This document shows positions 2,937 to 18,713 of a stretch of 24,000 bases of DNA, piece by piece. Every line of letters starts with the position of its first letter. Position 1 is the stretch's first letter. The stretch comes from Cyanobacteria bacterium P01_H01_bin.26 (GTDB lineage: Bacteria > Cyanobacteriota > Cyanobacteriia > Phormidesmidales > Phormidesmidaceae), in assembly GCA_038748225.1 (NCBI GenBank), contig JBCDJC010000040.1:1-24000 (forward strand), in the 5' to 3' direction. A program made the position numbers and the translations under genes. The notes under the pieces were generated by a model. It made no database searches. It was given only the letters and a program-made list of their open reading frames with translations, and had not been told where the DNA came from.

Positions 2937-2946
2937 AGCAAGTTTT

Positions 2947-3273
2947 ATGACTCAAAAGAAGAAACTGGCTGAATTTACATTGGCAGATGGGGAGACCACT
3001 TTTTTAGTGGAGGTGCCTGAGCCGATTAATGAAGATGTAGTAGAAGAAGTTTCTGTCTTGGATGAGCCTCTACTCAAGGCTAAGGAATCATTTGAGGCGG
3101 CCTTGGATAAAGTGATTCCAGTGGCGTCTGCGGCCATGGGTAGGTTAAAGAAAGCTTCGGCAGACGAGGTAGAGGTGAAATTTGGCCTAAATCTGAGTGC
3201 GGATGCTGGGGTGATTTTTTCGAGTGTGGGTAGCGAAGTGACATTTGAGATCACGATGAAGTGGGGAAAATAG
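2947..3273 (+). CDS. Small Trypco2-like (trypsin co-occurring, CU044_2847-like) protein
   Basis: 108 aa. C-terminus VEVKFGLNLSADAGVIFSSVGSEVTFEITMKWGK matches my memory of the trypsin-co-occurring domain 2 family. It sits 14 nt upstream of a trypsin-like protease gene. Confidence 0.7.
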   Translation: MTQKKKLAEFTLADGETTFLVEVPEPINEDVVEEVSVLDEPLLKAKESFEAALDKVIPVASAAMGRLKKASADEVEVKFGLNLSADAGVIFSSVGSEVTFEITMKWGK

Positions 3274-3287
3274 GCAGATAGAACTCT

Positions 3288-5117
3288 ATGGCAGACGGTG
3301 GTAGGAGACTAGATCAGGCTTATAAGTGTGCGATCGCACGCATCCACGGCAAAAGTAACAAGGTGATTGGTACTGGCTTTTTGGTGGACGGTGGTGTGAT
3401 TACCTGCGCCCATGTGGTTCGGGATGCGCTACGGCTGGGTCGCGGTCAGACGCCTGCCCAGGGCTCTAAGGTTATGATTAGCTTTCCGTTTTCTGTATCA
3501 AAGCGACCGATATCGGCTGAGGTAAAAATTTATCGATACTACAAAGAAGAAGACCAGCACCGGGAAGACGTAGCAGGACTGATTTTATTGGAGCCTTTGC
3601 CGGAGAGAACCAGCCCTATCCGACGGATTGAAGGTTATGGTCTGGAAAATTCCTTTCGAGTGTATGGATTTCCTGAGAAGCGAGCAGCTGGGCGAGAGGC
3701 GACGGGACGGTTTATGACCGATCTGGCGGACGGTCTAGTGCAGATTATTGGTAAGGATGGGTTTTCGATTCAGGCTGGTTTTAGTGGTTCTGCAATCTGG
3801 GATGAGCAGGTCGCTGCGGTGGTTGGGATGACTGTGGCGGTGGAGACGGAGGAACAGAACTCGGATATTGGATTTATGGTTCCAGCTTTGCCGCTGGTGG
3901 AGGTGCAGCGAAAGTTAGAATGTTTGGTGTTGGAGTATTTGCTAACGGTAGACGACGAGGGGCTGGCGGCGCAGATAAACGCAGCGACTGCCCAAGCCTA
4001 TGGGCTGAGTTGCCCTGATGGCTGGATAGTGCCTGACGGCATTGAATCAAAGTTAATCGGTCTGCAAGATGTGCAACTGGCTGAAAATGAGTATGAGGCC
4101 ATTTACCGATTCGCAGCTTTGCTAACCCAGCCTGAGCTAGGTCTGGAGCAAGACCTACGGGACCGGATTCAACAATGGGTGGAGCCCAAGGTTGAGAATT
4201 TCCAGAATTTATTAGACCAGGTTCAAGCTCAGCTGGCTGATCTATCAGAAAGCCAAGAGACTGATGCAGAGTCTTTATTACTGATTACGGTGAAGCCTGT
4301 TTCTGGAGATGAATATCCGGTACAGGCTCTGTTTATGCCAGATGTAAGTCAGTATCAGCCTGAGTTTGGCATGGGTGGACAACCGGTACAGGCTCCGAAA
4401 GCTAATAAATTTGGCGAGAATGTGACAGCCGACACCTTATCAAGTTTGGTCCGTGCCTGTGTTGCGGAAGTGACCCAGAAGGCCCCTCAGAGCCTGATGA
4501 TTCATCTGATTTTGCCATTGGATTTAATTCATCAGACGTGCGATCGCACCATCATTGAAAAAGCAGCCTATGATTTTCTGCCTGATGTTTGCATCGGCAT
4601 GCAATACCGCTTTGTAGTTCGCATAGCAGAGCGGCTGGAGCCGCAGCTGTGGAATCTCTTTAGTGTGAACTGGCAAAAAAAATGGACAGCACTACAAAAA
4701 CTGGCAGCAGGTAAGGGATGTAAAGTATTTATTCCAGGTGACAGTTTAGACCCTAAGACGGCCTTATTCTCAAAGCTCAACCATACCGATAGTTTGGGCC
4801 TAAAGCTAGCCAGTGTTTGTAACAATGCTTCCTACCGTGACATTTTTGGATCGGTGATTGCTGCGGGGGTACCAGCAGCGATTTGGTTACGGTCGGATGA
4901 GTTTTCCGATGGACTGGTGGCTATGGATGAAATCGACGGTCTACTGACCTGTAAAATTGCTAGGCTACCGCAGGCAATCCAGCAGGCTCGCTCTGATGCT
5001 ATGGCCGAGGCTGAGGATGCTCACATTGGTCATCATCTGTCTTTTTTATGGGATGACCCTACGCTCATTCCACCCAGTGCCCATCCCAATAATCAAATGT
5101 CTCTTGGAATGAAATAA
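3288..5117 (+). CDS. Trypsin-like serine protease fused to a VMAP-type (vWA-MoxR-associated protein) C-terminal region
   Basis: The N-terminal ~200 aa carry candidate catalytic-triad contexts: GTGFLVDGGVITCAHVV (His), EDVAGLILLE (Asp), GFSGSAIWD (Ser). The remaining ~400 aa are non-catalytic and lie immediately (2-nt gap) upstream of a MoxR ATPase gene, as in ternary vWA-MoxR-VMAP systems. Confidence 0.8.
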   Translation: MADGGRRLDQAYKCAIARIHGKSNKVIGTGFLVDGGVITCAHVVRDALRLGRGQTPAQGSKVMISFPFSVSKRPISAEVKIYRYYKEEDQHREDVAGLILLEPLPERTSPIRRIEGYGLENSFRVYGFPEKRAAGREATGRFMTDLADGLVQIIGKDGFSIQAGFSGSAIWDEQVAAVVGMTVAVETEEQNSDIGFMVPALPLVEVQRKLECLVLEYLLTVDDEGLAAQINAATAQAYGLSCPDGWIVPDGIESKLIGLQDVQLAENEYEAIYRFAALLTQPELGLEQDLRDRIQQWVEPKVENFQNLLDQVQAQLADLSESQETDAESLLLITVKPVSGDEYPVQALFMPDVSQYQPEFGMGGQPVQAPKANKFGENVTADTLSSLVRACVAEVTQKAPQSLMIHLILPLDLIHQTCDRTIIEKAAYDFLPDVCIGMQYRFVVRIAERLEPQLWNLFSVNWQKKWTALQKLAAGKGCKVFIPGDSLDPKTALFSKLNHTDSLGLKLASVCNNASYRDIFGSVIAAGVPAAIWLRSDEFSDGLVAMDEIDGLLTCKIARLPQAIQQARSDAMAEAEDAHIGHHLSFLWDDPTLIPPSAHPNNQMSLGMK

Positions 5118-5119
5118 CG

Positions 5120-6154
5120 ATGGCTGAAAAAGCTAACTGGCGAATTTTCCAGGGAAACCGAAAGCCCCAACAGGATGGGGACTATATCACCAAGCATCTG
5201 CCAGATCCGCCGGGATGGCGGCCCTTTGGTGGTGAGCACGCTGACAGTGTGGCCACTCTGAAAAAGCAGCAACGCGGGGCCACGTTTCAGGCAACGGATG
5301 ATGAAATCGATATGGTGAACGCGGCGTTGTATCTGCGGAGACCGTTGTTGATTACAGGCAAACCTGGCACTGGTAAAACGTCTTTGGCCTATGCAGTAGC
5401 CCACGAGCTTAACTTAGGCGAAGTACTATACTGGCCCATCACCACCCGTACTACCCGAAAAGAAGGACTTTATAGCTATGACGCTATTGCCCGTTTGCAA
5501 GATGCGCAGCTGGAGCGAGAAAAAGACATTGGCAGCTACATTACCCTTGGCCCTCTGGGTACCGCTCTGTTGCCAACGGACCACCCAAAGCGGCCACGGG
5601 TTTTATTGATCGATGAGATCGACAAGAGTGATATTGATCTCCCCAACGACCTGCTGCACCTGTTTGAAGATGGAGAGTTTGATATTCCTGAGGTGCTGCG
5701 GATGGCGGAGACACTTAAGGAGTCTGACACCACTGTGAAGATCCGTACAGCCTACAGTGAGCCGGACGAAACTCAGTTTGTAGAAACCCAGACGGGGCGG
5801 TTTCGCTGTGGGGCATTTCCTTTTGTGGTGTTGACCAGCAACGGTGAACGAGACTTTCCACCTGCATTTTTGCGGCGCTGTCTGCGGCTGAATATGGGTG
5901 AGCCAGATCCAGCGCGGCTCAAGAAAATTGTGGAAGCTCATCTAGGTCTGGACCTGGACGATAAGGATAAGGTGGACGCTGCCGAGGAACTGATTAAACA
6001 ATTTTGCCAGCGAGCGAAAAAGGGTGACCTGGCTACAGACCAGCTGCTGAATGCAGTGTATTTTGTGACACGGGAGCGGGTACCGGAGCAAAAAACACGG
6101 GATGCCCTAGTGGCTAAGCTGATGAAGTATCTCTCGAGTACTGAGGATGCATGA
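5120..6154 (+). CDS. MoxR-type AAA+ ATPase
   Basis: Walker A LITGKPGTGKTS, Walker B VLLIDEIDKSD, and downstream PPAFLRRCLRL. The stop overlaps the start of the next gene (ATGA at 6151-6154). Confidence 0.9.
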   Translation: MAEKANWRIFQGNRKPQQDGDYITKHLPDPPGWRPFGGEHADSVATLKKQQRGATFQATDDEIDMVNAALYLRRPLLITGKPGTGKTSLAYAVAHELNLGEVLYWPITTRTTRKEGLYSYDAIARLQDAQLEREKDIGSYITLGPLGTALLPTDHPKRPRVLLIDEIDKSDIDLPNDLLHLFEDGEFDIPEVLRMAETLKESDTTVKIRTAYSEPDETQFVETQTGRFRCGAFPFVVLTSNGERDFPPAFLRRCLRLNMGEPDPARLKKIVEAHLGLDLDDKDKVDAAEELIKQFCQRAKKGDLATDQLLNAVYFVTRERVPEQKTRDALVAKLMKYLSSTEDA

Positions 6155-9100
6155 GGTCTGATCGCCGTCCTGTCAAAGACCCTCAGGGAGTGGATGGATT
6201 TACCACGCTGTTGCGTCAGGCGGGGGTAGACTTTGGTGTGGAGGACCTGGCTGATGCCCTGTGGTTAGCCAAGTTTGTGGATGATCCAGGGGTAGATGAG
6301 GCCATACAGGCTGATGATCCAAATAAAGAGCAAGAAGGTCCCACTGTTCGCGAAGAATATTTAGAGCCTGAGGAAGACCTGGATCAGGATAATACGGCCC
6401 AGCTGAGCTTACCGTCGACTCAGGCAAAATCTCAAGGTGGCGAGAAGCCAGACGGTATCCCGATCAAGGCTCCAGCAGCCCCGGCACTGAGAATACGGCT
6501 AGACCTATCACGGGCGCTGCGACCATTGCGACGTATGGTGGACTCACCAGGTCGATTGATGTTTGATGAAGCGGCCACGGTAGAACAGATTGCCGATCAA
6601 CAGATTTGGTCGCCAGTGATGAAGCCTGCGCCAGAGCGATGGTTAGATGTGGCACTGGTGGTGGAAGAAACTCAAGCACTGTCAGTATGGAAAGAGACCA
6701 TTACCGAAGTGCAAACCCTGCTAGAGCGGCAGGGAGCTTTTCGGCAGGTGACCACCTGGCGACTAAAAGAACAAGGGGGTAAGTTGGCCCTGTTTCAACA
6801 TTGGCGGCGACCAGGTCAGCGACCTCGGCAGGCTAAGGACCTGTGGGATCCGTCTGGGCGGCGGTTGATTTTGTTGTTGAGTGATTGTACGTCAGTGGCC
6901 TGGCACGATGGCTCCATATTGACCTGGCTGCAAACCTGGAGCAAGCGCGCCCCGACTGCCATGATGCAGCTATTGCCCGAGAGGTTGTGGTCTCAGACAG
7001 GGCTGGGAGGGGGAGTGCCAGTGCAGCTAGGGGCCATTGAACCTGGCTGTGTAAATGAGCGACTGATGATGACCTATCGGTTACCAATCTACAAACAGTT
7101 ACTGGCAGGGATAGATACAGCAGACCGTGTGAAGTTACCCGTTGTGACTTTGCAGGCTCAGCCCCTGAAGCAGTGGGCCAAAGTGGTGGCAGGCAGTGGT
7201 GAGAGCTGGGCCACAGGCATGGTGTTTGATGGGGGAGAGAAGAAAAGAGAAGAGATAGTAGATAAAGGCCAAGGGATAGGCAAAATAGAGCCAGCACTAC
7301 GGGTGCAGCGGTTTCGGATGACGGCGTCGTTGATGGCGCAGGAACTGGCGGGGCTGATGTCCGTGGCTCCGGTAAGTCCCCCCATTGTGGATTTAATCCG
7401 GCAGACGCTGTTGCCTAGGGCGGAGCCGGTGCATGTGGCGGAAGTGTATATGGGAGGGCTGATGGAGCCCTCGCAGGCTAATGACCAGAGTGAAGTGACC
7501 TATGACTTTGATGATGAGGTGCGCAAGCTGTTGGCGAATTCAGTACCTCGGTCGGTGTCAAAGCATGTGTTAAATGCGGTGTCGGCTTACATCTCAGAGC
7601 GGTTGAATTTGAATACCCGCAGCTTTGAAGCGTTGCTGAGCGTTGACTTTGGAGATGATGTTGAAGCGGAGGGAATGGTGGTGCCCTTTGCCAGGGTAGC
7701 GGAACAAACCCTAAGGCGGATGGGGCGAGAGTATGCGGCGATCGCAGATCGAATACAGACGCGACCAAAGGTAGCATTACCGTCTGTTGAAGGGGATGCG
7801 AGTAATTGGGTGCCTCTATTACAGACATTCACGTTTAGAGAGGCGATGGTTGTTTTTGAAACTCAGTCAGAAACAACAGTAGAAAGGTCGTTAGAGGTGG
7901 CAGAGCCTGACGATGTAGAAGACGAAATTCAACGCTATGGGTTAACGCCTCGTGAAGCCGAGGTGTGGCGTTTGCGTAGGCAAGGACTTACTCATCAGGA
8001 AATCGCCCAGGAACTAGTTATTACAGCTAATACGGTTAAAAAACATGTCAATAATATTTTGTCTAAACAGCAGCTTGCGAGAGTACAGTCCAATGACGAT
8101 AATAAGCGTTATAGCTTAACTTCCCGTGAAGCAGATGTATGGCAGTTACGTCAGCGGGGAGCGACCTATCAAGAAATCGCTCAAGAACTGTTTATTTCAG
8201 TAAATACAGTCAAAAAACATCTCAAGAGTATTTTGGCTAAACGGCAATTCGTAGAGAAAAAAGAAGAACTAGCTGCTGAAAGTCAGCGATACGGATTTAC
8301 AGAGCGTGAGGCAGCCGTGTGGGAGCTGCATCAGTTTAATCATAACAAAGAGGAAATTGCTAAAGAACTTTACATTACTGTTGATACCGTTAGAAAGCAT
8401 TTAAGGAATATTCAAGCCAAACGTGAACAGGTTGAATCTCTCGGCGAAGATATGCGCTTTGAAAGATTCTCCTTTGAAACTGCTTACATAACTCTTGAGA
8501 AGACTGATGAGCAATCGCCGGAGCTGTTAATCACCTATCAAGAAAGTCATGGGAGGCAGTATATTGAAGGCCTAGGGAAAGACATTGAACTCCCAATGGT
8601 GTTACTTTCTGGTGGAACATTTGAAATGGGCTCGCCGGAGGATGAACAGGGATATGATCCTATGGACGGTCCACAGCATGTGGTTAGGGTACCTTCCTTC
8701 TTTATAGCCAAGTATCCTATTACTCAAGCTCAGTGGTGTGTGATTGCTGCGATGCCGCAGGTGAATCGTGAACTGGAGGCTGACCCGTCACATTTCAAGG
8801 GAGACAATTGCCCTGTTGAGAGTGTGAGCTGGTTTGATGCAGTAGAGTTTTGTGCGCGTCTCTCTAACCATACGGGGCGCGAATATCGCTTACCCACCGA
8901 AGCTGAATGGGAATATGCCTGTCGTGCCGGAACAACAACTCCATTCCATCTTGGTGAGACTATTACGGCAGACCTAGCAAATTATAATGCCACTGAAACT
9001 TTTGGTTCCGGTCCTGAGGGAGAATATCGAGAACAAACAACCGATGTAGCAAGCTTCCCAGCCAACGCCTTTGGCCTTTATGACATGCACGGCAATGTGT

Positions 9101-9348
9101 GGGAATGGTGTTTAGACCACTGGCATGACAACTATGAAGGGGCTCCTACCGACGGTAGTGCTCGGATAGACCCTAGCAAGAGTAACAAAAAAGACTCTGA
9201 CGAGAGCAAAAACCGTGTGCTGCGTGGCGGTTCGTGGTACATCTATCCTGAGGACTGCCGGTCGGCGGCCCGCAACTCCCTTACCCCGGGCGACCGCAGC
9301 AGCTCTAACGGTTTTCGGGTAGTGTGTGGTTCGGCGAGGACATCTTAG
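6151..9348 (+). CDS. vWA-type partner of MoxR. Architecture: SAV_2336-like N-terminal region, vWA-like region, three LuxR/GerE HTH modules, and a C-terminal FGE-sulfatase (CLec-fold) domain bearing DGR VR1
   Basis: N-terminus LLRQAGVDFGVEDLADALWLAKFV. vWA-like strands LDVALVVEETQ and RRLILLLSDCTSVAW. Three ~49-aa repeats with the (Q/K)RY.LT.REA.VW...EIAQEL.I..NTVKKH pattern (7930-8076, 8104-8250, 8284-8427). FGE-sulfatase motifs GGTFEMGSP, RLPTEAEWEYACRAGT, HGNVWEWC, LRGGSW, GFRVV. Confidence 0.8.
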   Translation: MRSDRRPVKDPQGVDGFTTLLRQAGVDFGVEDLADALWLAKFVDDPGVDEAIQADDPNKEQEGPTVREEYLEPEEDLDQDNTAQLSLPSTQAKSQGGEKPDGIPIKAPAAPALRIRLDLSRALRPLRRMVDSPGRLMFDEAATVEQIADQQIWSPVMKPAPERWLDVALVVEETQALSVWKETITEVQTLLERQGAFRQVTTWRLKEQGGKLALFQHWRRPGQRPRQAKDLWDPSGRRLILLLSDCTSVAWHDGSILTWLQTWSKRAPTAMMQLLPERLWSQTGLGGGVPVQLGAIEPGCVNERLMMTYRLPIYKQLLAGIDTADRVKLPVVTLQAQPLKQWAKVVAGSGESWATGMVFDGGEKKREEIVDKGQGIGKIEPALRVQRFRMTASLMAQELAGLMSVAPVSPPIVDLIRQTLLPRAEPVHVAEVYMGGLMEPSQANDQSEVTYDFDDEVRKLLANSVPRSVSKHVLNAVSAYISERLNLNTRSFEALLSVDFGDDVEAEGMVVPFARVAEQTLRRMGREYAAIADRIQTRPKVALPSVEGDASNWVPLLQTFTFREAMVVFETQSETTVERSLEVAEPDDVEDEIQRYGLTPREAEVWRLRRQGLTHQEIAQELVITANTVKKHVNNILSKQQLARVQSNDDNKRYSLTSREADVWQLRQRGATYQEIAQELFISVNTVKKHLKSILAKRQFVEKKEELAAESQRYGFTEREAAVWELHQFNHNKEEIAKELYITVDTVRKHLRNIQAKREQVESLGEDMRFERFSFETAYITLEKTDEQSPELLITYQESHGRQYIEGLGKDIELPMVLLSGGTFEMGSPEDEQGYDPMDGPQHVVRVPSFFIAKYPITQAQWCVIAAMPQVNRELEADPSHFKGDNCPVESVSWFDAVEFCARLSNHTGREYRLPTEAEWEYACRAGTTTPFHLGETITADLANYNATETFGSGPEGEYREQTTDVASFPANAFGLYDMHGNVWEWCLDHWHDNYEGAPTDGSARIDPSKSNKKDSDESKNRVLRGGSWYIYPEDCRSAARNSLTPGDRSSSNGFRVVCGSARTS
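9220..9338 (+). repeat. DGR variable repeat VR1 (last 119 nt before the RTS-stop of the vWA/FGE-sulfatase gene)
   Basis: Aligns without gaps to 10914-11032 and 12018-12136. Apart from one third-position difference from the TR-like copy in codon 22, differences fall only at positions 1-2 of 13 codons. Confidence 0.85.
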
Positions 9349-9473
9349 CCCTTTGCGCTTGTTCACTTTTGCCCTGTTCATATTTTGCATTATTTTTTCT
9401 TTTTATAAAGAAAATGAGCTGAAGTTGCGAGGCTCATGGCATTGTTTGAGAACGTTGGCTAGAGGCTGGGCGT

Positions 9474-9875
9474 ATGAAAAAAGAGTTGCCTATTGTGCAA
9501 AAGACCTACGACCTGCTGAAGTGGTATGTGCCGATTTTGAATAAGCTGCCTCGTGAGCATAAGTTTTTGCTGGGGGACCGAATGATTACAGGGCTATACG
9601 AACTTATGGAAGGACTGGTTTTGGCGCGATACAGCTCAGACAAACTGCCTCGACTCCAGGTGTTAAACAGTCGGTTGGATCTGCTGCGGCATCAGACTCG
9701 TCTGCTGCTGGACTTTGAGCTGATGTCTGTGAAGCGCTATGAGTATGCTGGGCAGTTGCTGAATGACATTGGCCGAGAGCTGGGCGGTTGGATACGACAG
9801 CAGCGGGCAAAGGCAGCATGGAACGCTACGGCAACCTCTGGCCCGATATCATTGCCTTTGAAAATCTGCTGCTAG
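9474..9875 (+). CDS. avd: Avd-like accessory variability determinant (four-helix-bundle, 23S rRNA IVS protein family)
   Basis: YDLLKWYVPILNKLPREHKFLLGDRM and IGRELGGWIRQQ match the four-helix-bundle/Avd pattern. It lies directly upstream of, and overlaps by 58 nt, the RT start. Confidence 0.85.
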   Translation: MKKELPIVQKTYDLLKWYVPILNKLPREHKFLLGDRMITGLYELMEGLVLARYSSDKLPRLQVLNSRLDLLRHQTRLLLDFELMSVKRYEYAGQLLNDIGRELGGWIRQQRAKAAWNATATSGPISLPLKICC

Positions 9876-10881
9876 CGGCCCGTAAAGCCCAGCGAGGCAA
9901 ACGCTATCAGCCCAATGTGCTGCAGTTAACTACCACCTGGAAACAGAACTGCTGGCGCTGCACACCGAGCTGACGACTAAAACTTATGCACCAGGTCCGT
10001 ACTACACCTTCGACATTTATGAACCTCAGCCGCGCCTGATCTCAGCCGCGCCCTACCGGGACCGGGTAGTGCACCATGCCCTATGTGAGCACATCATGCC
10101 GATTTTTGAACGCACTTTCATTGCTGACTCTTATGCCAACCGGCTGGGCTATGGTGTCCACCGCGCCCTGCGGCGGTTTATTGGCTTTGCACGGTCCAGC
10201 CGCTACGTGCTACAGTGCGACATCCGAAAATACTTCCCCAGCATTGATCATGAAATTCTAAAAACCAGGCTACGGCGGAAGCTTAAGTGTCCTGATACTC
10301 TCTGGCTAATCGATACCATCATTGACCATAGTAATGAGCAAATTCCGGTACATGAGCTTTTTCCAGGGGATGACCTACTAACGATGCTAGAGCGGCGACG
10401 GGGGTTGCCCATTGGTAATCTGACCAGTCAGTTTTTTGCCAATGTTTATCTGAATGGCCTGGACCATTTTGTCAAAGAGCAGCTGCGGGTGAGAAAGTAC
10501 GTCCGTTATGTGGATGACTTTTCGCTCTTTAGCGATGACCGTGCCTTTTTGGCCGATGCTCGCCTGGCCATAGAAGACTTTCTTGCAGATATTCGCCTTA
10601 AGATTCACCCGGTAAAAAGTCAGCTGTTTGAAACCCGTTATGGAGCTAACTTTCTGGGATTTCGTATACTGCCCGACCGCATTCGTGTGCGTAAAGAAAA
10701 CCTGCGCAGGGGCAAACGACGATTACGACAGCTGCAGGCCGATTATGCCAACGGTAGGCTAAGCCTGGCGGACCTGGATCGTTCGATACAGAGCTGGTTG
10801 GCCCACCTGAACCATGGCGATACCTGGCAGTTGCGTAAACAGATCTTTGCTGACCTTGTGTTTACCCGCTATTGTGGATAG
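9818..10881 (+). CDS. DGR-type reverse transcriptase interrupted by an apparent 1-nt frameshift near 9926-9928 (possible pseudogene or sequencing error)
   Basis: N-terminus [36 protein letters not shown] lies in one frame (9818-9925). It continues as [53 protein letters not shown] in the adjacent frame, which is open from 9886. DGR hallmark [16 protein letters not shown] and catalytic YVDD are both present. Confidence 0.9.
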
Positions 10882-10913
10882 GCAAGGCAGTAAAGGCGGG
10901 GCAGGCACCCCGA

Positions 10914-11032
10914 CTGCGTGGCGGTTCGTGGAACAACAATCCTGAGAACTGCCGGTCGGCGATCCGCGGCAACTCTTCTCCGGGCGACCGCTACTTCGAT
11001 CTCGGTTTTCGGGTAGTGTGTGGTTCGGCGAG
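10914..11032 (+). repeat. RT-proximal template-repeat (TR)-like copy of the 119-bp repeat; chimeric or atypical
   Basis: Starts 32 nt after the RT stop. Hot codons 7, 8, 9 and 12 are AAC AAC AAT AAC, as expected for a TR. Codons 17-30 carry non-adenine differences from both VRs. The 3' flank diverges from the shared VR flank immediately after GGCGAG. Confidence 0.65.
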
Positions 11033-11234
11033 CACTCTTCACGAGGTGAGAACTGATGGATGGGAATCTATTGGGAGGGCGTCAGAAGAGTCCAGACCTG
11101 TTCCGGTGATGCTGGTGACAGCATCCGAATATAAAATCGGGTTGGGCAAGCCTGGTAAGCTTAGCTGAACGGTTACCCAACCCACCCAATTCGTTTTTTG
11201 GAAGCGCCCCAAAACGGGAGCCTCTGCGGATACT

Positions 11235-12146
11235 ATGGCAGCACCACCCGAAACTAAACCACAGCTAGTCGTTCGCTATCGAGACCGTACAGCTCAGTTT
11301 TTTACCGAAGATGATCTAGCGCTAACAGCGGAGCAGACAGCTCTAGAAATGGTGCTTATTCCTGAGGGGGAATTTATGATGGGCTCCCCTCAAGATGAGC
11401 AAGGGCGGGATTTATATGGTGAAGTGCAAGACGACTACAAAGGTGTTGATGTAGAAGGCCCTCAGCACCTGGTGAGGGTGCCTTCCTTCTTTATTGGTAA
11501 ATACCCGGTAACCCAGGCCCAATGGCGGGCAGTGGCCGCTCTACCCCAGATAGAGCAGGAGCTTGAGCCAAACCCGTCCAGCTTTAAGGGAGACAATCGC
11601 CCGGTAGAGCAAGTCAGCTGGCACGATGCGATGGAGTTCTGCGCGCGGCTACAGAAGCATACAGGGAAGCCCTATCGTTTACCTAGCGAAGCTGAATGGG
11701 AATATGCCTGTCGGGCAGGCACGACTACGCCATTCCACTTTGGCACATCGATCACAACAGATTTAGCCAATTATTCTGGAACCGATTATGAATACGGAGG
11801 TAGAACCTTTTCAGGGGCCTATGGCAATGGTCCTCATGGTGTTTATCGAGAAGAAACTACAGATGTGGGAAGTTTTGCGATCGCAAATGCCTTTGGTCTC
11901 TATGACATGCACGGCAACGTCTGGGAATGGTGTTTAGACCACTGGCACAAAACCTATGAAGAAGCTCCTAAAGATGGTCGCGCATGGATATCCTCTGGCG
12001 AGAGTGAATTGCGCGTACTGCGTGGCGGTTCGTGGTACGGCAATCCTGAGTTCTGCCGGTCGGCGTTCCGCGACGACTATACCCCGGGCGACCGCAGCGA
12101 CAATAGCGGTTTTCGGGTAGTGTGTGGTTCGGCGAGGACATCTTAG
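11235..12146 (+). CDS. Free-standing FGE-sulfatase (CLec-fold) domain protein; second DGR target carrying VR2
   Basis: 303 aa. A close paralog of the C-terminal ~290 aa of the 6151-9348 product (GPQHLVRVPSFFIGKYPVTQAQW, RLPSEAEWEYACRAGTTTPFH, HGNVWEWCLDHWH, LRGGSW...GFRVVCGSARTS). Confidence 0.9.
   Translation: MAAPPETKPQLVVRYRDRTAQFFTEDDLALTAEQTALEMVLIPEGEFMMGSPQDEQGRDLYGEVQDDYKGVDVEGPQHLVRVPSFFIGKYPVTQAQWRAVAALPQIEQELEPNPSSFKGDNRPVEQVSWHDAMEFCARLQKHTGKPYRLPSEAEWEYACRAGTTTPFHFGTSITTDLANYSGTDYEYGGRTFSGAYGNGPHGVYREETTDVGSFAIANAFGLYDMHGNVWEWCLDHWHKTYEEAPKDGRAWISSGESELRVLRGGSWYGNPEFCRSAFRDDYTPGDRSDNSGFRVVCGSARTS
12018..12136 (+). repeat. DGR variable repeat VR2
   Basis: Gap-free alignment with VR1 shows 17 differences, all at codon positions 1-2 of 10 codons. 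The following 42 nt are also 37/42 identical to the VR1 flank. Confidence 0.85.
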
Positions 12147-12291: not shown

Positions 12292-12738
12292 TTACCAAGG
12301 CAACCACTTTCGCGTTTGCTTCGAAGTCTGCTCAACAGACGCCAAAATTCGACTATTCACCTCATCCTGAGATTCTCCACCAATCGTCCCAATCTGCCGA
12401 TCCAACTCATTGGCCGCCAACGACTCATTCACCATATAAGCCTCCTGGGCAGGCTGGGGTAACGTATCCCGCCGACCTTTTTTGCCGCCGGTCTCCCGAT
12501 ACAGGTCATTCACCGTGCAGCCAAACAGCTCTTTCGTCTGAGTCACAGCGGCCTGTTCATATATATCGCCTGTACCGCCATTCTCCTTAATCGACTTATT
12601 AAACCGCCGATTTACCAGCGCTCCATCTACACGCCTACGCGGCGGAATAAGCGCCTGGGAGTTTCCGCTCAACTCTAATTGGGAGGCAGTCTCTTCCTGG
12701 TTGGGAGCCTCGTTCTTCCACCAATTCAAAAAAGCCAT
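12292..12738 (-). CDS. Hypothetical protein (may be the C-terminal part of a frameshifted larger gene)
   Basis: 148-aa ORF. It overlaps the upstream ORF by 104 nt. No family recognised with confidence. Confidence 0.5.
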   Translation of the reverse strand: MAFLNWWKNEAPNQEETASQLELSGNSQALIPPRRRVDGALVNRRFNKSIKENGGTGDIYEQAAVTQTKELFGCTVNDLYRETGGKKGRRDTLPQPAQEAYMVNESLAANELDRQIGTIGGESQDEVNSRILASVEQTSKQTRKWLPW

Positions 12739-13186
12739 GGGCTTCGTTCTGTTCCTGGGGTGTAAATTCTAAAAGTTGTTCCAAACCGGTTTTGATCAGC
12801 TCTAGACCATCGGGATACATCAAAAAGGCATCCAGAATCTCGTGCCGATACTCATAGTCCCAACGGTCTGGGGTGAAGTTAAAACTGTTTAACACCAGCA
12901 TGTAGGCATCTAAACAGCTTTCGTAGCTGGCCTGGGCTGAGAAGTGAGCCAATGCCTTAATCCAGGTGACCTTATAGCGACGGTCCCCAAACTGTTTGAC
13001 ATCTTGAACGTAGTTTTGGGGCTGCGTCACCACACCACTGGCCTCGTTAAACCGGGTCCAGGCGTTCCAAACTCGTTTTTTTAGCTCGGGCAGCTTCATT
13101 GTGACGTCAGTTGGCTTTGGCTCTAGGATACCGCTAGTTTTGGGATTGCCATAGCGGTTTGAGAATAATTGTTTAACATTACTCAT
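12635..13186 (-). CDS. Hypothetical protein
   Basis: 183-aa ORF. Its start overlaps the stop of the DUF3368 gene by 8 nt, so they probably share an operon. No family recognised. Confidence 0.5.
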   Translation of the reverse strand: MSNVKQLFSNRYGNPKTSGILEPKPTDVTMKLPELKKRVWNAWTRFNEASGVVTQPQNYVQDVKQFGDRRYKVTWIKALAHFSAQASYESCLDAYMLVLNSFNFTPDRWDYEYRHEILDAFLMYPDGLELIKTGLEQLLEFTPQEQNEAHGFFELVEERGSQPGRDCLPIRVERKLPGAYSAA

Positions 13187-13664
13187 CAGCTTGCTGTTTG
13201 AGCAACTGGACTAAACTCTCAGAAAGCCATAGGCCAGCATTTTGGAGGGCTTGAATGGGTTCTGAAACAGATGAAATAATGCCCCTGCGTTTGGCAAGTA
13301 CGATTATCCCACCTGTTCCCAGAGTGGGGATTTTGAGGCTCACAGCACAGCGACGAGCGGCAGCGTCATCGAGGAGAGCGGTGTAATCAGAGTGGGTCAG
13401 GGCATAGCTAATGACTTCTGACTCACCGGCTCCGAGATCCCAGGCCGATACTTTTGGGTCGGTAGTGATGGTTGCCAGTCGGTTGGCCCAATTAGCTTGA
13501 GGTAAGCTTTGGGCTGCAATGTCCTCTTTGCAAGCGGTTACTTCAAACCACACGGCAGGCGGGACGTTTACCTGGCCGAATAGCTGAGGCAATAAATCAG
13601 CGAGCTGGCTTTTGTAGAGGGTAATCAGAGGCGATGCATTGATGATGACGTGTTTAATCGGCAT
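13179..13664 (-). CDS. DUF3368-family PIN-like nuclease (putative toxin)
   Basis: VIINASPLITLYKSQLADLLPQLFGQVNVPPAVWFEV, DLGAGESEVISYAL and GTGGIIVLAKRRGII match the DUF3368/PIN pattern. Paired with the UPF0175 gene upstream. Confidence 0.8.
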   Translation of the reverse strand: MPIKHVIINASPLITLYKSQLADLLPQLFGQVNVPPAVWFEVTACKEDIAAQSLPQANWANRLATITTDPKVSAWDLGAGESEVISYALTHSDYTALLDDAAARRCAVSLKIPTLGTGGIIVLAKRRGIISSVSEPIQALQNAGLWLSESLVQLLKQQADE

Positions 13665-13908
13665 TACTGAGTTCTTTGATCAAGTCAGCTTCGGTGTATT
13701 GGAAGGGGGATACCTGGTAGCGGGAAAGTGCCTGAATGAAGTCAGCACGGGTAAGCCCTGCGATTTCGGCAGCTTTTCCTTGGGAAACTTGTTCCAGTTC
13801 GTACCATTTGACAGCGGCGGCGATGCGCATTTCTTGGGCAAATTCCTCAGGGGTTTTGCGTAGGGCTGAGAAAGCAGTATCAGGGAGGTTGAGGGTAATG
13901 CTGGTCAT
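13654..13908 (-). CDS. UPF0175-family putative antitoxin
   Basis: 84 aa. FAQEMRIAAAVKWYELEQVSQGKAAEIAGLTRADFIQALSRYQVSPF is typical of UPF0175. 11-nt overlap with the DUF3368 gene. Confidence 0.8.
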   Translation of the reverse strand: MTSITLNLPDTAFSALRKTPEEFAQEMRIAAAVKWYELEQVSQGKAAEIAGLTRADFIQALSRYQVSPFQYTEADLIKELSNAD

Positions 13909-14048
13909 GGGAATTAGTTTGCGGGGTGTGGGTCTATGCTAACGGACCTAACCCTAAGCTTTTAAGTCTTTGTTAGGAGTGGTATTTATGGCCTGTTGCA
14001 GTTTGGGGTGAGTGATCGCAAATTTCTCCTGGAGCAGTGAATTTGGGC

Positions 14049-14621
14049 TCACGGTTGGCCCCCTTCCATGCGGCGCTGTTTTAGATGACCGTAGGTGTCC
14101 AGCTCGGCCTGGATTTCTAGCTTGTAGCGCATAATGCCCCGGCGTTGACCGGTGGCTTTAAATGAGGCCAACTCTGCGTCTGAGAAGTCAGCTTCGGTAA
14201 CGGCTAGCTGATCGACAAAGTTTTCCAGGTCGGCCAGCTCGGCGGCGATGGACTGCTGCATTATGCCGTTTTGGGTTTGGCGGAGGGCCAGGGCACTACT
14301 AACGCTATCGGGCATGAGCTCCCCTTCAATTACTCCGGCATTGCTCCATTCGTGGGCATAGCGGGCCTTGGTATTGGCGACCCATTGGGTACGGTCAGCA
14401 TGCCTGACTCGACTAAATTCATCAAACAGTGTCCGTGCCAGCTCGGTATAGGTGGAGCCTTGTTTTAGCAGCGGTTCAGGGGCCACCTGCACAATCCATT
14501 GAAACCAGCGATTGCGGATGGTGGCATCGCTTACCCCCAGTTGTTCGCCTAGCTGTACGGCTGTGTATGAGCCCTGTTTTGTTGCCGTTCGATCAACGGA
14601 CAAATTAGGTATATCATTCAT
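14049..14621 (-). CDS. Hypothetical HTH-containing protein
   Basis: ORF with the probable HTH YTAVQLGEQLGVSDATIRNRW. I chose the ATG at 14619-14621 (MNDIPNL), which is preceded by AAGGA, over the upstream GTG. Confidence 0.6.
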   Translation of the reverse strand: MNDIPNLSVDRTATKQGSYTAVQLGEQLGVSDATIRNRWFQWIVQVAPEPLLKQGSTYTELARTLFDEFSRVRHADRTQWVANTKARYAHEWSNAGVIEGELMPDSVSSALALRQTQNGIMQQSIAAELADLENFVDQLAVTEADFSDAELASFKATGQRRGIMRYKLEIQAELDTYGHLKQRRMEGGQP

Positions 14622-14801
14622 GGCGTAATCCTTGTATTTAAAGGGTTCTAGCACCGTTCACCCGCTGTTCGTGGCACGTTCAGCAGATGCTCGAATATGT
14701 ACAGTACAAGTGTACGGATAAGTTCAGGATAATTCAATAGCTGTATTGCAAAAACTTTGGTTCTAGGTAGCTGGTGGGGTAGTGAACGAGAAACCGGACA
14801 A

Positions 14802-15338
14802 ATGAGAAAACAAGAGACAGATTTCCCGGTTTCACAGCTGATGGAGCGCTATGGTCTGGTGCGATCGCAGGTCTACACCCGCATTAATGCGCTCAAAGTA
14901 CAAAATCCTGAGCTGGCTCCATTTAGAGCAGGGGTACGTTCCTATGTCAGTGAAACGGTACTGGCCTGTCTTGATGAAGTCCATCGGCTGATTAATGAGG
15001 AAGGGCTGACCACTGGGGAAGCGGCTAATCTTGTGGCGGGTAGCTTAGACCGGTCGGCAGCGGACAGCACCGAACAAGAAGATGATATGTCCGGTGTGGC
15101 CTCTCCCCAGGAGGCTCCCTTGATGGCGCTGCGGCGAGTGTTGCAGGCAGAACCCCTGGCCCGTTATGACCTGTTGGATAAGCTCGCAGAGCGGGGATGG
15201 CGATTGCCTACCCGTGAGTTGGCCCTGTTGTTAGGGATGGAAGAACTGACGAGGGAAGCGTTTGAATGCTATGGCTATCGGTTTACCCGAGGGGATGAGG
15301 GTGACCTGGAGATTTCCTGGCGGGTGGAGAAACTTTAG
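14802..15338 (+). CDS. Hypothetical HTH-containing protein
   Basis: ORF read from the first ATG (MRKQETDFPVSQLMERYGLVRSQVYTRINAL, HTH-like). Divergent from 14049-14621. Confidence 0.55.
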   Translation: MRKQETDFPVSQLMERYGLVRSQVYTRINALKVQNPELAPFRAGVRSYVSETVLACLDEVHRLINEEGLTTGEAANLVAGSLDRSAADSTEQEDDMSGVASPQEAPLMALRRVLQAEPLARYDLLDKLAERGWRLPTRELALLLGMEELTREAFECYGYRFTRGDEGDLEISWRVEKL

Positions 15339-15545
15339 GAGGCTATTTGAATAGCTGGCTATCTAGATAGTTAGATGCTTAAGATGTTCTGCTAGCTGAG
15401 CGGAGCCAAAGCTACACCCTACCAGCGCCCCGTTCGACTCTGCTCAGGGGACGCTTATTCCCTAAGGTGATAGCTTTCAAAGGTCATGGCTATCTAAACA
15501 GCCAGATAGTCAGCTATTTAGATATTCAGACAGCTGACTAACCAG
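15339..15545. promoter_or_regulatory. Candidate partition site (parS/parC-like palindromic iterons) upstream of parA
   Basis: GGCTATTTGAATAGC (15340-15354). GGCTATCTAGATAGTT (15357-15372), containing the 12-bp perfect palindrome CTATCTAGATAG at 15359-15370. GGCTATCTAAACAGCCAGATAGTCAGCTATTTAGATA (15488-15524). Confidence 0.45.
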
Positions 15546-15591
15546 CGATGGAATGTCGGTGTAGGCTAGCTGCCAGGCTACTGGTTTTGCT

Positions 15592-16227
15592 ATGAGAATC
15601 GCCATTGTCAGCTTAAAGGGCGGGGTGAGTAAATCGACGCTGTGTGTGAATATTGGGGCGGCGCTGTCAAAGCTGGGCCGTTCGGTGGTGGTGGTGGATG
15701 CGGACCCCCAGGGTTCGATTAATGATTGGGCTACGATTCGCGATGAGGTGTCGAGACCGCCGTTTACGGTGCTGGCGGCGGCCAGGAAAACGCTGAATCG
15801 AGATATTGATGCGTTGCAGGGCAGCCATGATGATTGTTTGATTGATACGCCAGGGCGGGCGGAGGCGATTACGTTGGCTGCGATCTCAGCGGCGGATTTG
15901 GTGTTAATCCCCATCAGTCCATCGTCCTATGACCTGTGGGCTGCTGAGCAAACTTTAGAACGGATGGACCCGATTCGAGCGATCTACACTGACATTAAGA
16001 TTGCCTATGTGGTGAGTAAAGCGGTGGTGGGGTCTTCGTTGGATCGGGAGTTGCGCCAGGTGATTAAGGGGATGGAAGGTGACTTGCTAAAAACGGTGGT
16101 GCATCAGCGGGTGGCGTTTCAGCGCTGTGCCGATGGGGCCACTATCTACGAACTGAAGGATGAAAAGGCCCAGCGAGAGGTGACTAATCTGACTAAGGAA
16201 ATTCTGAAACTGATGGGGGTTGGCTAA
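15592..16227 (+). CDS. parA: ParA-family partition ATPase (small, type Ib-like)
   Basis: Deviant Walker A MRIAIVSLKGGVSKST, then VVVVDADPQGS and CLIDTPG. The stop overlaps the downstream start (TAATG at 16225-16229; a single shared base, 16227). Confidence 0.9.
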   Translation: MRIAIVSLKGGVSKSTLCVNIGAALSKLGRSVVVVDADPQGSINDWATIRDEVSRPPFTVLAAARKTLNRDIDALQGSHDDCLIDTPGRAEAITLAAISAADLVLIPISPSSYDLWAAEQTLERMDPIRAIYTDIKIAYVVSKAVVGSSLDRELRQVIKGMEGDLLKTVVHQRVAFQRCADGATIYELKDEKAQREVTNLTKEILKLMGVG

Positions 16228-16514
16228 TGCCGCAACCGAGACCCAAACGGGATGCTAAGGCGATTGAGCAGTTGATCAATGCGGCCTCAGACGATGGGGC
16301 GGATTTAGGTCCGAGGGTACCGGTGTCGAAAGGGGTGGGTAAGAACAAACGCCCGGATTATCAGAAGCTGTTGGTTTATATTCCGGTGGATCTGCACAGG
16401 GCGCTGAAGCGGGAGGCATTTGATAGTGATGGGGATGTGGATATGAGTGATATCATCGCTGAGCTTTTGGCGGAACGGTATCAGGTGAATTTGGATCGGC
16501 TGATATCTAGATAG
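16227..16514 (+). CDS. Small ParG-like ribbon-helix-helix centromere-binding protein (ParB functional analogue)
   Basis: 95 aa, directly coupled to parA. C-terminus LLVYIPVDLHRALKREAFDSDGDVDMSDIIAELLAERY has an RHH layout. Confidence 0.65.
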   Translation: MPQPRPKRDAKAIEQLINAASDDGADLGPRVPVSKGVGKNKRPDYQKLLVYIPVDLHRALKREAFDSDGDVDMSDIIAELLAERYQVNLDRLISR

Positions 16515-16556
16515 CTAGACAGTTGGATATCTGGCTATTTGGATAGTTGGCTAAGC
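16501..16556. repeat. Second cluster of the par-associated iteron family
   Basis: TGATATCTAGATAGCT (palindrome TATCTAGATA at 16504-16513) and GGCTATTTGGATAGTT (16532-16547). The latter is 13/15 (over its first 15 nt) and 14/16 identical to the copies at 15340 and 15357. Confidence 0.4.
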
Positions 16557-16765
16557 AATGTTGGGGTATCAGTTGAGGGTGGAATAGCGTTCTCAGCACC
16601 TGACTATGCGGTTTCCTTAAAATTTGTAGCAGTCTATTCGCCAGTCAGGAAGAGCGTTTGAGGGATTGCTCAAAAGTTTTTATAGAAAAGCATGCATAAT
16701 TATATGTTTTTACAATAGTATGTAGATATCGATTTTGAATCGGTGTCGGTAATGAGGTTGGTGTT

Positions 16766-17140
16766 ATGCCTGCCAAGAAGAAGAAAGATCCTGATAATAA
16801 GGATCAAAAACCAGTACGCATCTCAGCTATAGATGAAGATGTTCTCACGGCGCTGTTGGGACGTGAGCTATATGGTCTGGAGATTTTGGATCAGTTGAAT
16901 CTGGATCGTCCTAGTGAGCTGAAGTTTGGCAGTTTGTATCCGGCGCTGAATCGTCTTGAAAAGAAGGGATTGGTGTCCTGGAAATGGGGCGATGAGGTGG
17001 ATGAGTCAGGGGGTGCTCGGCGCAAGTATTACAAAGTGACTGGGTTAGGGGTGAGATCTTTAAGGGCGGTACAAGAATATCGAGCCGCACTGGCGCAGCG
17101 AGCGGGGCAGGCTCCGGCTATGTGCGGAGGAGGGACTTGA
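16766..17140 (+). CDS. PadR-family transcriptional regulator
   Basis: LYGLEILDQL...FGSLYPALNRLEKKGLVSWKWGDEVDESGGARRKYYKVTGLG is a canonical PadR wHTH. Confidence 0.85.
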   Translation: MPAKKKKDPDNKDQKPVRISAIDEDVLTALLGRELYGLEILDQLNLDRPSELKFGSLYPALNRLEKKGLVSWKWGDEVDESGGARRKYYKVTGLGVRSLRAVQEYRAALAQRAGQAPAMCGGGT

Positions 17141-17141
17141 G

Positions 17142-18425
17142 GTGGACAAACGGATTAAGCGTACGCTTCGGAAACTATGGCGAGATCGATCGCTGATTAG
17201 CATTGGTGGTCTATTAGTTTTTGGATTTTCTGCCTTACAGCTACAAAGTCTTTTTAAGAGCCGTTCTGTATATCCTTCATGGGTTTTGGACTATTCTTAT
17301 TCAGTTGAGATACTGGTGCATGAGAATGGATCTGAAGAAGAACTAAACAATGCTATCCAAGAGATTTACAAAATCTCACAAGAACGCAACTTACAACGCA
17401 CTCGGATAGTTTTTGAAAAATTAGAGTGGGCTCGGGCTCAGGGGCTGACTTTGGATCTGGCTTTGGATCTGGCTCTGGTTCAGGATTTGGGTCAGGCTCG
17501 GGATCTGGCTCGGGATCTGGCTCGGGATCTGGCTCGTGTTCTGGTTCAGACTTGGGATCGGAATGGGGTTTGGGCTTGGACTCTGGCTCTGGATCAGGAG
17601 CGGGATCAGGCTCGGGCTTTGGATCTGGCTCTGGCTCAGAATCAGGCTCTAGCTCTGGCTCTGGCTCAGGATCTGGCTCTAGCTCGGGTTCAGGCTCAGA
17701 CTAGGGATCAGGATTGGGCTGTGGCTCAGGTTCAGGCTCTAGCTTTATCTCGGGCTCTGGCTCAGGATTTGGCTCAGGATTTGGCTCAGGATTTGGCTCT
17801 GGCTCAGGATTTGGCTCTGGCTCAGGATCATGATCAGGCTCAGGATTTGGCTCAGGATTTAGCTCAGGATTTGGCTTGGGCCAAGGCTCAGAATGTGCTT
17901 CAGGATTTGGCTGTGGCTCAGGATCAGGCTCTGGCTCAGGATTTGGCTCGAGTATCTGACCTGGCTGACGAATTGGTGAAGCTCTTGAATCAGGCTAACA
18001 ACACTCTACTCGTATTCGTCATAGCAACAGAGTTAGAAGAAACTCATGGGTTCACACTACAACATGGAAACACCTTGACAACTCTCTTGAGCCGTGAGCC
18101 TAATCGTGTCCGTACCTTAATGCAGTCAGGAATTTTATTGGGTGCATCAACCATAGTACTGTTCGGTTTGTTAGTGACACTTACCAGGCTCAAAAGAGTG
18201 CCTAACCTACCACGTACCGCCAATCTTATCGCCTTTCTTCCAGAAGAATATGTTGCGGAGCTGGGATACTTACAACGCCGCTTAAGGAAAACAAATAAGT
18301 CTCCCTGGCAAATTCGACGACGGCTGATGCACGAATTTGTCTTTCTACTCTGGGTGCATTACATCCAAGTACAGCTAGATAATCTGTTTTTAGGTTCCAA
18401 CCAAGATCACACTATTGACGACTAA
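17142..18425 (+). CDS. Membrane-anchored protein with a long (A/L)(Q/R)DLA-type low-complexity helical repeat region; PadR-coupled
   Basis: GTG start 1 nt after the PadR stop. Predicted TM segments [17 protein letters not shown] and [18 protein letters not shown]. About 180 aa of DLALDLA / [13 protein letters not shown] / [13 protein letters not shown] repeats. Confidence 0.7.
17428..17970 (+). repeat. In-frame degenerate tandem repeat (6/12/18-nt periodicity) inside the 17142-18425 CDS
   Basis: Includes three perfect tandem 12-mers CTCAGGATTTGG (17761-17796), further copies at 17803, 17839 and 17863 (one-mismatch variant at 17851), and interspersed CTCTGG units. Confidence 0.85.
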
Positions 18426-18464
18426 GTTTCAAATCCCCTTGCTACATACCGAGGAGTAAACCTA

Positions 18465-18674
18465 ATGTTTTGCCGTCACAAACGACCGATGCCCACACCA
18501 CCTACACCAGAACCTGACAGTCTAGAATTTAATCTCCGTCTCTCTGGCCCAACAATCGTTAAATTGTTATCTATAGCAGTGGCAATACTATGTGGCTCTG
18601 GTGTACTTGTACATAACACATCTAACATCACACCTATAACCCCATCACCTCCAACGATGCAAACAACTCCATAG
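18465..18674 (+). CDS. Hypothetical small single-pass membrane protein
   Basis: 69-aa ORF with GAGGAG 7 nt upstream of the ATG and one hydrophobic segment, IVKLLSIAVAILCGSGVLV. No homology recognised. Confidence 0.35.
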   Translation: MFCRHKRPMPTPPTPEPDSLEFNLRLSGPTIVKLLSIAVAILCGSGVLVHNTSNITPITPSPPTMQTTP

Positions 18675-18713
18675 AGGGACAACAACCATTTTGGACTATC
18701 AAATGTCAGTTAA

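Follow-up and report, generated by a model that had tools for sequence, protein, structure and literature searches.

The window, a stretch of 24,000 nucleotides from Cyanobacteria bacterium P01_H01_bin.26 (GenBank assembly GCA_038748225.1, contig JBCDJC010000040.1, positions 1 to 24,000), carries a canonical cyanobacterial diversity-generating retroelement (DGR) in the order VMAP-MoxR-target1/VR1-avd-RT-TR-spacer-target2/VR2, where RT is the reverse transcriptase, TR the template repeat, and VR1 and VR2 the variable repeats. The locus is probably a rare natural case of a DGR damaging its own template as the element dies. Relative to orthologous templates, the TR has lost 11 adenines within 35 nt (10968-11002), whereas the adenines upstream of this tract are unchanged, and the RT gene is broken by a frameshift. 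Very probably, the TR was overwritten by an adenine-mutagenized DGR product, whether that product arrived as complementary DNA (cDNA) or through a VR.

Mismatches among the repeat copies

The window contains three copies of the repeat that align in register: VR1 (9220-9338, + strand) at the 3' end of target gene 1, the non-coding TR (10914-11032, +), and VR2 (12018-12136, +) at the 3' end of target gene 2. Neither a repeat search nor a 3-mismatch scan of the invariant block revealed a fourth copy in the 24 kb. A first-pass annotation, made from the letters of the window, had counted 22 mismatches between the TR and VR1, 13 of them at non-adenine TR positions, and 18 between the TR and VR2, 10 of them non-adenine, and these counts were reproduced. 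The rule that TR/VR mismatches fall at template adenines only thus fails for the present TR against both VRs, and the non-adenine mismatches occupy the same TR positions in the comparison with VR1 as in that with VR2. In seven related cyanobacterial DGRs that served as a baseline (the ortholog described below, L010, L011, L014, and plasmid DGRs of Fischerella, Nostoc, and Anabaena), the VR body contains 0-1 non-adenine mismatches; the plasmid collection yielded only distant relatives, of 65-68% identity. Because these seven relatives are essentially adenine-only, the window is a genuine outlier. Codons 7, 8, 9, and 12 of the TR, which the first-pass annotation had described as pristine, indeed read AAC AAC AAT AAC, codons 19-22 read GGC AAC TCT TCT, and codons 27-30 read TAC TTC GAT CTC.

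An orthologous locus and the ancestral template

A pattern scan of GTDB species-representative genomes identified an orthologous locus (L002) on contig JBCCAQ010000013.1 of the metagenome-assembled genome (MAG) 'Cyanobacteria bacterium P01_A01_bin.15'; besides this locus, the only match in the scan was a VR in a distant Elainellales MAG (L003). The ortholog has the same gene order as the window and is 90.1% identical to it over 7.8 kb. Its RT is intact (354 aa from the ATG, the same length as the intact RT protein P0001), its TR reads AAC AAC AAT..AAC..ATC CGC AAC AAC AAT ACC CCG GAC GAC CGC AAC AAC AAC AAC, and both of its VRs differ from that TR at adenines only. This canonical TR, together with RT P0001 and the VRs of L002, recurs in four more assemblies from other samples (L004/L006, L005, L007, and L008). 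A metagenome scan with the TR-specific 3' flank returned a single sister-lineage contig only.

Across the 479 bp from 10783 to 11261, the window differs from L002 by only 14 substitutions, all of which lie in 10968-11002 and 12 of which are at an adenine of the ortholog. Both window VRs have two of the 14 as well (G at 10984 and T at 11000); these two therefore pre-date the event, which leaves 12 changes that are private to the TR. The outgroup TRs of L011 and L010, whose RTs are ~83% identical, have AAY at the altered codons as well and indicate that ATC at codon 17 and ACC at codon 22 are ancestral. Since there is an orthologous canonical TR with adenine-only mismatches, the direction of change is settled: as judged from the sequence comparison, the change took place on the TR side and not on the VR side.

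The ancestral TR reconstructed for the window reads AAC AAC AAT..AAC..ATC CGC AAC AAC AAT ACC..GGC GAC CGC AAC AAC AAT AAC, that is, 11 AAY codons plus ATC and ACC, and the best explanation of both present VRs is that this sequence templated them. The adenine-only rule that fails for the present TR holds for this ortholog-inferred ancestor, with 13 of 14 VR1 differences and all 12 VR2 differences at adenines; the present TR differs from it at 12 positions, 11 of which are adenines. Two changes are exceptions to the adenine-to-N pattern, C>T at 10979 in the TR and T>C at 10963 in VR1. The 11 tract changes at ancestral adenines are at 10968, 10969, 10974, 10975, 10977, 10992, 10995, 10996, 10998, 11001, and 11002. 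All 10 adenines of the 5' part of the TR (10914-10967, +; AAC AAC AAT ... AAC ... ATC) are unchanged, and the contrast between 0 of 10 adenines mutated 5' of 10968 and 11 of 16 mutated in 10968-11002 is significant (Fisher p = 7e-4). Under random placement in 119 nt, the probability that at least 11 of 12 substitutions would fall on adenines is ~2e-7. The adenine-mutagenized tract (10968-11002, +) is delimited by its differences from L002, by the ancestor reconstruction, and by the outgroup TRs of L011 and L010. Its codons are all NNY. Of the 24 hot-codon adenines, 13 are left, codons 19, 21, 22, 28, and 30 having become fixed and codons 27 and 29 half-fixed.

The first-pass annotation had proposed that the 3' two-thirds of this copy were adenine-mutagenized while its 5' hot codons stayed intact, and had suggested that orthologous loci be compared to reconstruct the ancestral TR. 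That comparison bears the proposal out: the predicted TR with its adenines exists at the syntenic position in the ortholog, and the same canonical TR is found in all of the sister-lineage assemblies. Some of the details have to be revised. The altered region is a real tract but begins at codon 19 (10968) rather than at codon 17 (10962), the ATC of which is ancestral. A single ancestor does account for the three copies through adenine-to-N changes, yet it contained 11 AAY codons plus ATC and ACC instead of 13 AAY codons. The one exception that had been allowed, at codon 22, disappears with the ancestral ACC, and the two exceptions given above take its place.

Identity of the altered copy as the template

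The copy at 10914-11032 is, as far as its setting can tell, the true TR and not an orphan VR, because it occupies the orthologous TR slot directly after the RT gene, has a TR-type 3' end, and is followed by the conserved spacer RNA. The 3' end of the TR (GAGCACTCTTCAC) differs from that of the VRs (GAGGACATCTTAG), and the TR flanks are identical to those of the orthologs over 185 bp (5') and 259 bp (3'). The TR is thus syntenic with the canonical TR of the orthologs, and it has not acquired the VR-type target signal, that is, the sequence at which mutagenic homing is initiated (IMH) in place of its template counterpart IMH*; its flanks are those of the canonical ortholog. No cis change of the IMH*-to-IMH kind therefore accompanies the corruption of the template. 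A search for DNA hairpins downstream of the VRs, such as those that form the target signal of the BPP-1 type, gave nothing beyond shuffled controls.

The spacer 3' of the TR (11030-11183, +) is 100% identical to that of the orthologs in lineages that are 10% diverged elsewhere. Of the 48 pairs predicted in a consensus RNA structure over 7 DGRs, 18 have compensatory changes, and a structured spacer RNA of ~150 nt is also present in L010, L011, and L014-L017. This conserved RNA is presumably the spacer or priming RNA of the clade, and the presumed RT-recruiting and priming element is unchanged in the window. Rfam gave no family match anywhere in the window, the spacer RNA included. At the 5' edge of the TR, a small conserved stem-loop with a GGGG..CCCC core lies at ~10887-10917. 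An open reading frame (ORF) of 98 aa with a TTG start (10872-11168) runs through the TR in the codon frame of the VRs, has a weak FGE-sulfatase match (E = 1.8e-4), and is also open in the ortholog (L002 6058-6354); it is most likely a by-product of the descent of the TR from coding sequence and not a gene.

The reverse transcriptase lesion and the state of the element

The RT gene contains a 1-nt deletion, TT at 9926-9927 where all orthologs have TTT, so that the N-terminal frame meets a stop codon at 9971-9973. Three-frame translations divide the protein into an N-terminal fragment of 51 aa (9818-9973, +), the frame of which is broken at 9926-9927, and a remainder of 317 aa in the shifted frame (9928-10881, +) that matches Pfam RVT_1, has the YVDD motif, and is 97% identical to the intact RT P0001. 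With the missing base restored, the RT is full-length and keeps YVDD. The frameshift site is the sole indel in the RT gene relative to L002, and window-specific amino-acid changes, polarized with three outgroups, are not in excess (3 versus 2) and give no sign of relaxed selection on the RT. Because the RT is otherwise undecayed, its inactivation looks recent; no finer dating is given by these data. The frameshift, to which the first-pass annotation of this repeat makes no reference, is the lesion that would silence the DGR. The reading frames of avd and of both target genes are intact.

Both VRs mismatch the non-adenine positions of the present TR in the 3'-most hot codons 27-30. Since homing starts at the 3' end of the VR (PMC3240598, PMC5703328), these mismatches indicate that no VR has been re-templated since the TR changed. 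Evidence on current diversification is thus indirect and speaks against activity, the VRs being incompatible with the present TR and the RT being frameshifted. The first-pass annotation had expected that self-homing or VR/TR recombination would largely disable further diversification. While the ortholog supports its reading of the template as corrupted in one of these ways, the loss was overstated: 13 of the 24 hot-codon adenines are left, and the corrupted template would still diversify the 5' codons.

In the sister lineage, VR1 and VR2 are identical across the four samples represented by L002, L005, L006, and L007, in which the surrounding DNA differs by up to 2.6%, and this lineage with identical VRs keeps an intact RT and TR. 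It would seem that this clade seldom diversifies its VRs or that selection on them is strong. The gene calls in L006 divide target 1 into two genes (207 and 790 aa).

Origin of the adenine-mutagenized tract

The change in the TR has a characteristic footprint: it is adenine-specific, it forms a single tract that adjoins the 3' invariant block, its 5' boundary is sharp and lies within an invariant block, and the spacer and flanks are unaffected. In outline, adenine-mutagenized DGR sequence would have taken the place of the variable portion of the TR in its 3' part (10968-11002). Priming of the element's cDNA would occur in the spacer, with 3'-to-5' copying across the TR RNA, and the product would normally be installed at a VR, beginning at the 3' end and finishing in a 5' junction that varies and depends on homology. 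In this case that junction, or the point at which a truncated cDNA ended, may have come to lie inside the invariant block TGCCGGTCGGCGATCCGC, allowing the upstream AAY codons to escape. Neither VR has been the target of homing since, and the 1-nt deletion in the RT gene would have ended activity at about the same time, such that the overwriting would have occurred shortly before or around the inactivation of the RT.

Self-homing of the element's own cDNA into the TR is the route toward which this evidence leans, if only with moderate confidence. The 5' junction of integration requires only short homology (PMC3240598, PMC5703328), and a tract that abuts the 3' invariant block has the polarity that homing would give if it began at the 3' end and closed at a 5' junction dependent on homology. 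TR self-mutagenesis driven by cDNA has been demonstrated in an engineered system (bioRxiv 10.1101/2025.03.24.644984); changes at TR adenines, the mark of experimental TR self-mutagenesis, make up 11 of the 12 changes here. Homologous recombination between TR and VR is reported to be rare, and homing to be RecA-independent (PMC12875486). No donor VR with the tract was found in the window, in 17 fetched loci, or in viral contigs. Several observations weigh against self-homing. The 3' end of the TR (IMH*-like) is that of the orthologs, with no cis change that would account for mis-targeting, and the event must therefore have been a rare off-target one; the tract change at 10979 (C>T) is not at an adenine; and the 69% of adenines mutated lies toward the upper end for a single pass, such that several events or a VR donor could have been involved. 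It is possible, too, that a second DGR acting in trans, or a VR donor at a remote site, lies outside the 24-kb window, for which GGTTCGTGGNNNNNNNNNCCTGNGNNNTGCCGGTCGGCG offers a query sequence with which a second TR or a tract-bearing VR could be sought. The window lineage, moreover, has been seen in one sequencing run only (SRR22824304), at the level of assemblies. Finally, a sequencing error is conceivable as the cause of the RT frameshift, but runs of 2-3 T are not error-prone and two assemblies agree on it.

The main rival, possible but rather unlikely, is VR-to-TR gene conversion, in which a diversified VR gave the tract to the TR by homologous recombination between invariant blocks; the donor would be a transient VR variant on another genome copy of a polyploid cyanobacterium or a remote third target. 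The tract would still be DGR-made but installed by host recombination instead of by cDNA. Blocks that are identical in the TR and the VRs bound the tract on both sides (18 nt 5' and 30 nt 3'), the uniformly NNY codons of the tract are typical of VRs, the non-adenine change at 10979 could be an ordinary mutation from the donor, and engineered systems have a low-level background of TR-VR recombination (PMC12875486; bioRxiv 10.1101/2025.03.24.644984). The same flanking blocks are, however, very short for RecA-type exchange, and such recombination is reported to be rare (PMC12875486). The present VRs match the tract at no block of hot codons and cannot be the donors, neither of them could have been re-diversified later from the corrupted TR, and the search for a donor described above found none. 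It is far less probable that 10914-11032 is an orphan or degenerate VR, with an intact TR elsewhere, with or without another RT, serving VR1 and VR2. In favor of it, neither VR can have been templated by the copy as it now stands, DGR components that act in trans and degenerate loci have been described (PMC10907252, PMC5758913), and the space searched in this genome was the 24-kb window. Yet the position of the copy is that of the TR in the orthologs and in all relatives, between the RT and the spacer RNA and within identical flanks, and no target gene ends there; only three copies exist in the window, and the scan of GTDB species-representative genomes gave no further pattern copy in the sister genome. 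The orphan-VR reading, which the first-pass annotation had offered as one of three, is accordingly rejected for 10914-11032, and its other suggestion, an unusual DGR mechanism, is without support, all relatives being canonical.

An assembly artifact is likewise improbable, though slightly less so than an orphan VR. In such an artifact, a VR variant from a heterogeneous population would have been threaded between TR-specific flanks, the true TR being canonical. The three repeats do have long identical blocks in common, metagenomic VRs can be heterogeneous, and the lineage is known from one run. Against this, the TR-specific markers that flank the tract (AAC at 10947-10949 and C at 11033) are 87 nt apart, which is less than a normal read length. 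Logan contig L001 from that run, in an assembly possibly made from the same data as the window contig, is 2273 bp long and exactly identical to window 9327-11599, including the frameshift and the chimeric TR; a second contig of SRR22824304 is identical to window 2812-6163. The start of L001 coincides exactly with the point past which VR1 and VR2 have no 31-mer in common, and the end of L008, a Logan contig of the sister lineage, coincides exactly with the point from which its TR and VR1 have one. As L001 crosses the TR unbroken, a competing path with a canonical TR would appear to be absent from the sample, for a canonical-TR allele would be expected, from the way assemblers work, to make the assembly branch at 10968. 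The intact RT P0001 was not found in SRR22824304, and the contig also carries an independent RT lesion, which is in keeping with a decaying element. Exact matches to the Avd and MoxR proteins of the window occur only in that Logan run, the target 2 protein has no exact match on record, and exact-protein look-ups found no independent sample of the window lineage. Hardly credible is the view that the mismatches reflect neutral decay of a dead DGR, or non-adenine changes made in the VRs by an RT of low fidelity. The RT is indeed frameshifted, and non-adenine (non-A-to-N) mismatches occur in 23% of DGRs and are frequent in cyanobacterial Lineage 4, for which lower RT fidelity has been suggested (Wu et al., PMC5758913). 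The changes are on the TR side and not on the VR side, however, and are confined to 35 nt of an otherwise identical 479 bp, with 11 of 12 at adenines; the RT has no other decay, and the TR positions with non-adenine mismatches are the same for VR1 as for VR2. Neutral decay and VR-side RT infidelity are both refuted by the ortholog comparison.

Gene content of the window

All features of the DGR cassette from the VMAP gene to VR2 are on the + strand. A Trypco1 gene (2947-3273) precedes a gene for a VMAP protein with a trypsin-like peptidase domain (3288-5117; Pfam VMAP-C, VMAP-M1, and Trypsin_2), a conflict-system neighbor of the DGR target, and a gene for a MoxR-like AAA ATPase (5120-6154; Pfam AAA_5, AAA, and bpMoxR), which is kept upstream of target 1 in all relatives. 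The VMAP-C, VMAP-M1, Trypsin_2, AAA_5, bpMoxR, and Trypco1 domains are parts of a VMAP/MoxR ternary conflict system beside the target. Target gene 1 (6151-9348) encodes 1065 aa (1061 aa in the ortholog) with a LuxR-type helix-turn-helix (HTH, Pfam GerE) and a C-terminal FGE-sulfatase/C-type lectin (CLec) domain. These were the only Pfam matches in target 1, in which no von Willebrand factor A (vWA) domain was detected and the N-terminal ~590 aa are without a match. An internal direct duplication in target 1 (7921-8246; 152 nt, 74% identity) corresponds to its two LuxR/GerE-type HTH modules. The accessory gene avd follows (9474-9875; Pfam bAvd PF22296, E = 5.8e-20), and next to the TR lies the DGR-type RT, with its RVT_1 match and with thousands of cyanobacterial DGR RTs as its best homologs. 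Target gene 2 (11235-12146) encodes a 303-aa FGE-sulfatase/CLec protein (Pfam FGE-sulfatase, E = 3e-56). In both targets the FGE-sulfatase match extends to the C-terminus, and the VRs, which were placed by repeat alignments, end 8-10 nt ahead of the stop codons.

Downstream of the DGR (12292-19414) are genes of the mobile-element type, including a UPF0175/DUF3368 toxin-antitoxin-like pair, a ParA-type ATPase (15592-16227), and a tyrosine integrase fragment (18911-19414). Related DGRs reside on cyanobacterial plasmids in Fischerella, Nostoc, and Anabaena 90, and the window locus may be part of a plasmid or an integrated element. An ORF at 17142-18425 contains ~45 tandem units of 12 or 18 nt (repeat core 17412-17965) that encode (A/L)(Q/R)DLA-type repeats. 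Hydrophobic segments flank these repeats, Pfam gave no match to the ORF, and its counterparts in the sister loci are much shorter genes (53-191 aa), the repeat array appearing to be variable in length.

Implications and comparison with known systems

In the working model of DGRs, information flows one way, out of an invariant TR and into the VRs, and the distinction between IMH and IMH* guards the template; the window locus is a natural counterexample to this model. Replacement of IMH* by IMH in Bordetella phage BPP-1 was reportedly found by Doulatov et al. in 2004 to result in TR self-mutagenesis. A template with a partial, 3'-anchored, adenine-specific conversion tract is the footprint to be expected of the element's own cDNA. 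The locus also gives a concrete picture of how a DGR may degrade, with a drop in hot-codon adenines from 24 to 13 and with the RT frameshift as a further lesion. Because the TR is non-coding, the tract is an unselected record of mutagenesis output, and the sister strain (run SRR22824269 or MAG JBCCAQ01) with its intact RT makes the natural rate of TR self-mutagenesis measurable. For some non-A-to-N mismatches, overwriting of the template offers an alternative to low RT fidelity, the diagnostic being non-adenine mismatches at the same TR positions against all VRs.

Codon 24 (10984; 9290 and 12088 in the VRs) is GGC in the window TR and in both VRs, whereas the sister lineage has GAC and the outgroups have GAG or GAT; in the Fischerella plasmid TR (L015 6883-6885) the first hot codon is GGC in the TR and both VRs but AAC in relatives. 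Both are possibly older template edits that were passed on to the VRs, and they are two hints that would fit natural self-editing of templates. As a speculation to which a low probability is given here, DGR templates may be mutable in nature in general: an element's own mutagenized cDNA would occasionally home into its TR, which would be a regular route to the loss of diversifying capacity, and where the RT survives, the template and its repertoire would evolve, with new non-adenine codons reaching all VRs. If this were true, self-editing of the template could explain part of the non-A-to-N mismatches in the 23% of DGRs that have them.

To date, a naturally occurring adenine-mutagenized TR was not found described in the literature searched, the coverage of which was incomplete, and the window appears to hold a canonical DGR in an unusual and apparently undescribed natural state. 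The locus has the gene order VMAP-MoxR-target-avd-RT-TR-target of the canonical DGRs of filamentous cyanobacteria (Lineage 4 of Wu et al.; the VMAP/MoxR-linked clade 5E of Dore et al.), along with the same FGE-sulfatase/CLec targets with a 3' VR, an AAY-rich TR, and a conserved spacer (PMC10907252, PMC5758913). It differs from them in a TR that lacks 11 adenines in 35 nt, in its non-adenine VR mismatches, in the RT frameshift, and in that no vWA domain was detected. As in the DGRec system in E. coli (bioRxiv 10.1101/2025.03.24.644984), the changes in the template DNA are adenine-specific, consistent with the element's own cDNA having been installed at the TR. Unlike engineered TR self-mutagenesis, the change here is natural and required neither recombineering functions nor a switch from IMH* to IMH; it is restricted to the 3' part of the TR and has become fixed in the population as assembled. 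Catalogued DGRs with non-A-to-N mismatches, of which the maximum is 11 in one target and which were attributed to RT infidelity or integration errors (PMC5758913), resemble the window as far as many non-adenine TR/VR mismatches in a cyanobacterial DGR are concerned. They are unlike it in that here the ortholog reveals the TR to be the partner that changed, the counts of 13 and 10 are at or above the reported maximum, and the positions are the same against both VRs. Degenerate DGR loci with a disabled RT by intact targets, as in the window, are found in Thiohalocapsa PB-PSB1 (PMC10907252) and as a remnant in Anabaena sp. 90 (PMC7517822), where the RT or TR is pseudogenized or missing. Transposons or deletions degraded those loci, whose VRs agree with a TR elsewhere at every non-adenine site; in the window, by contrast, the TR is still in place but has been rewritten at its adenines.

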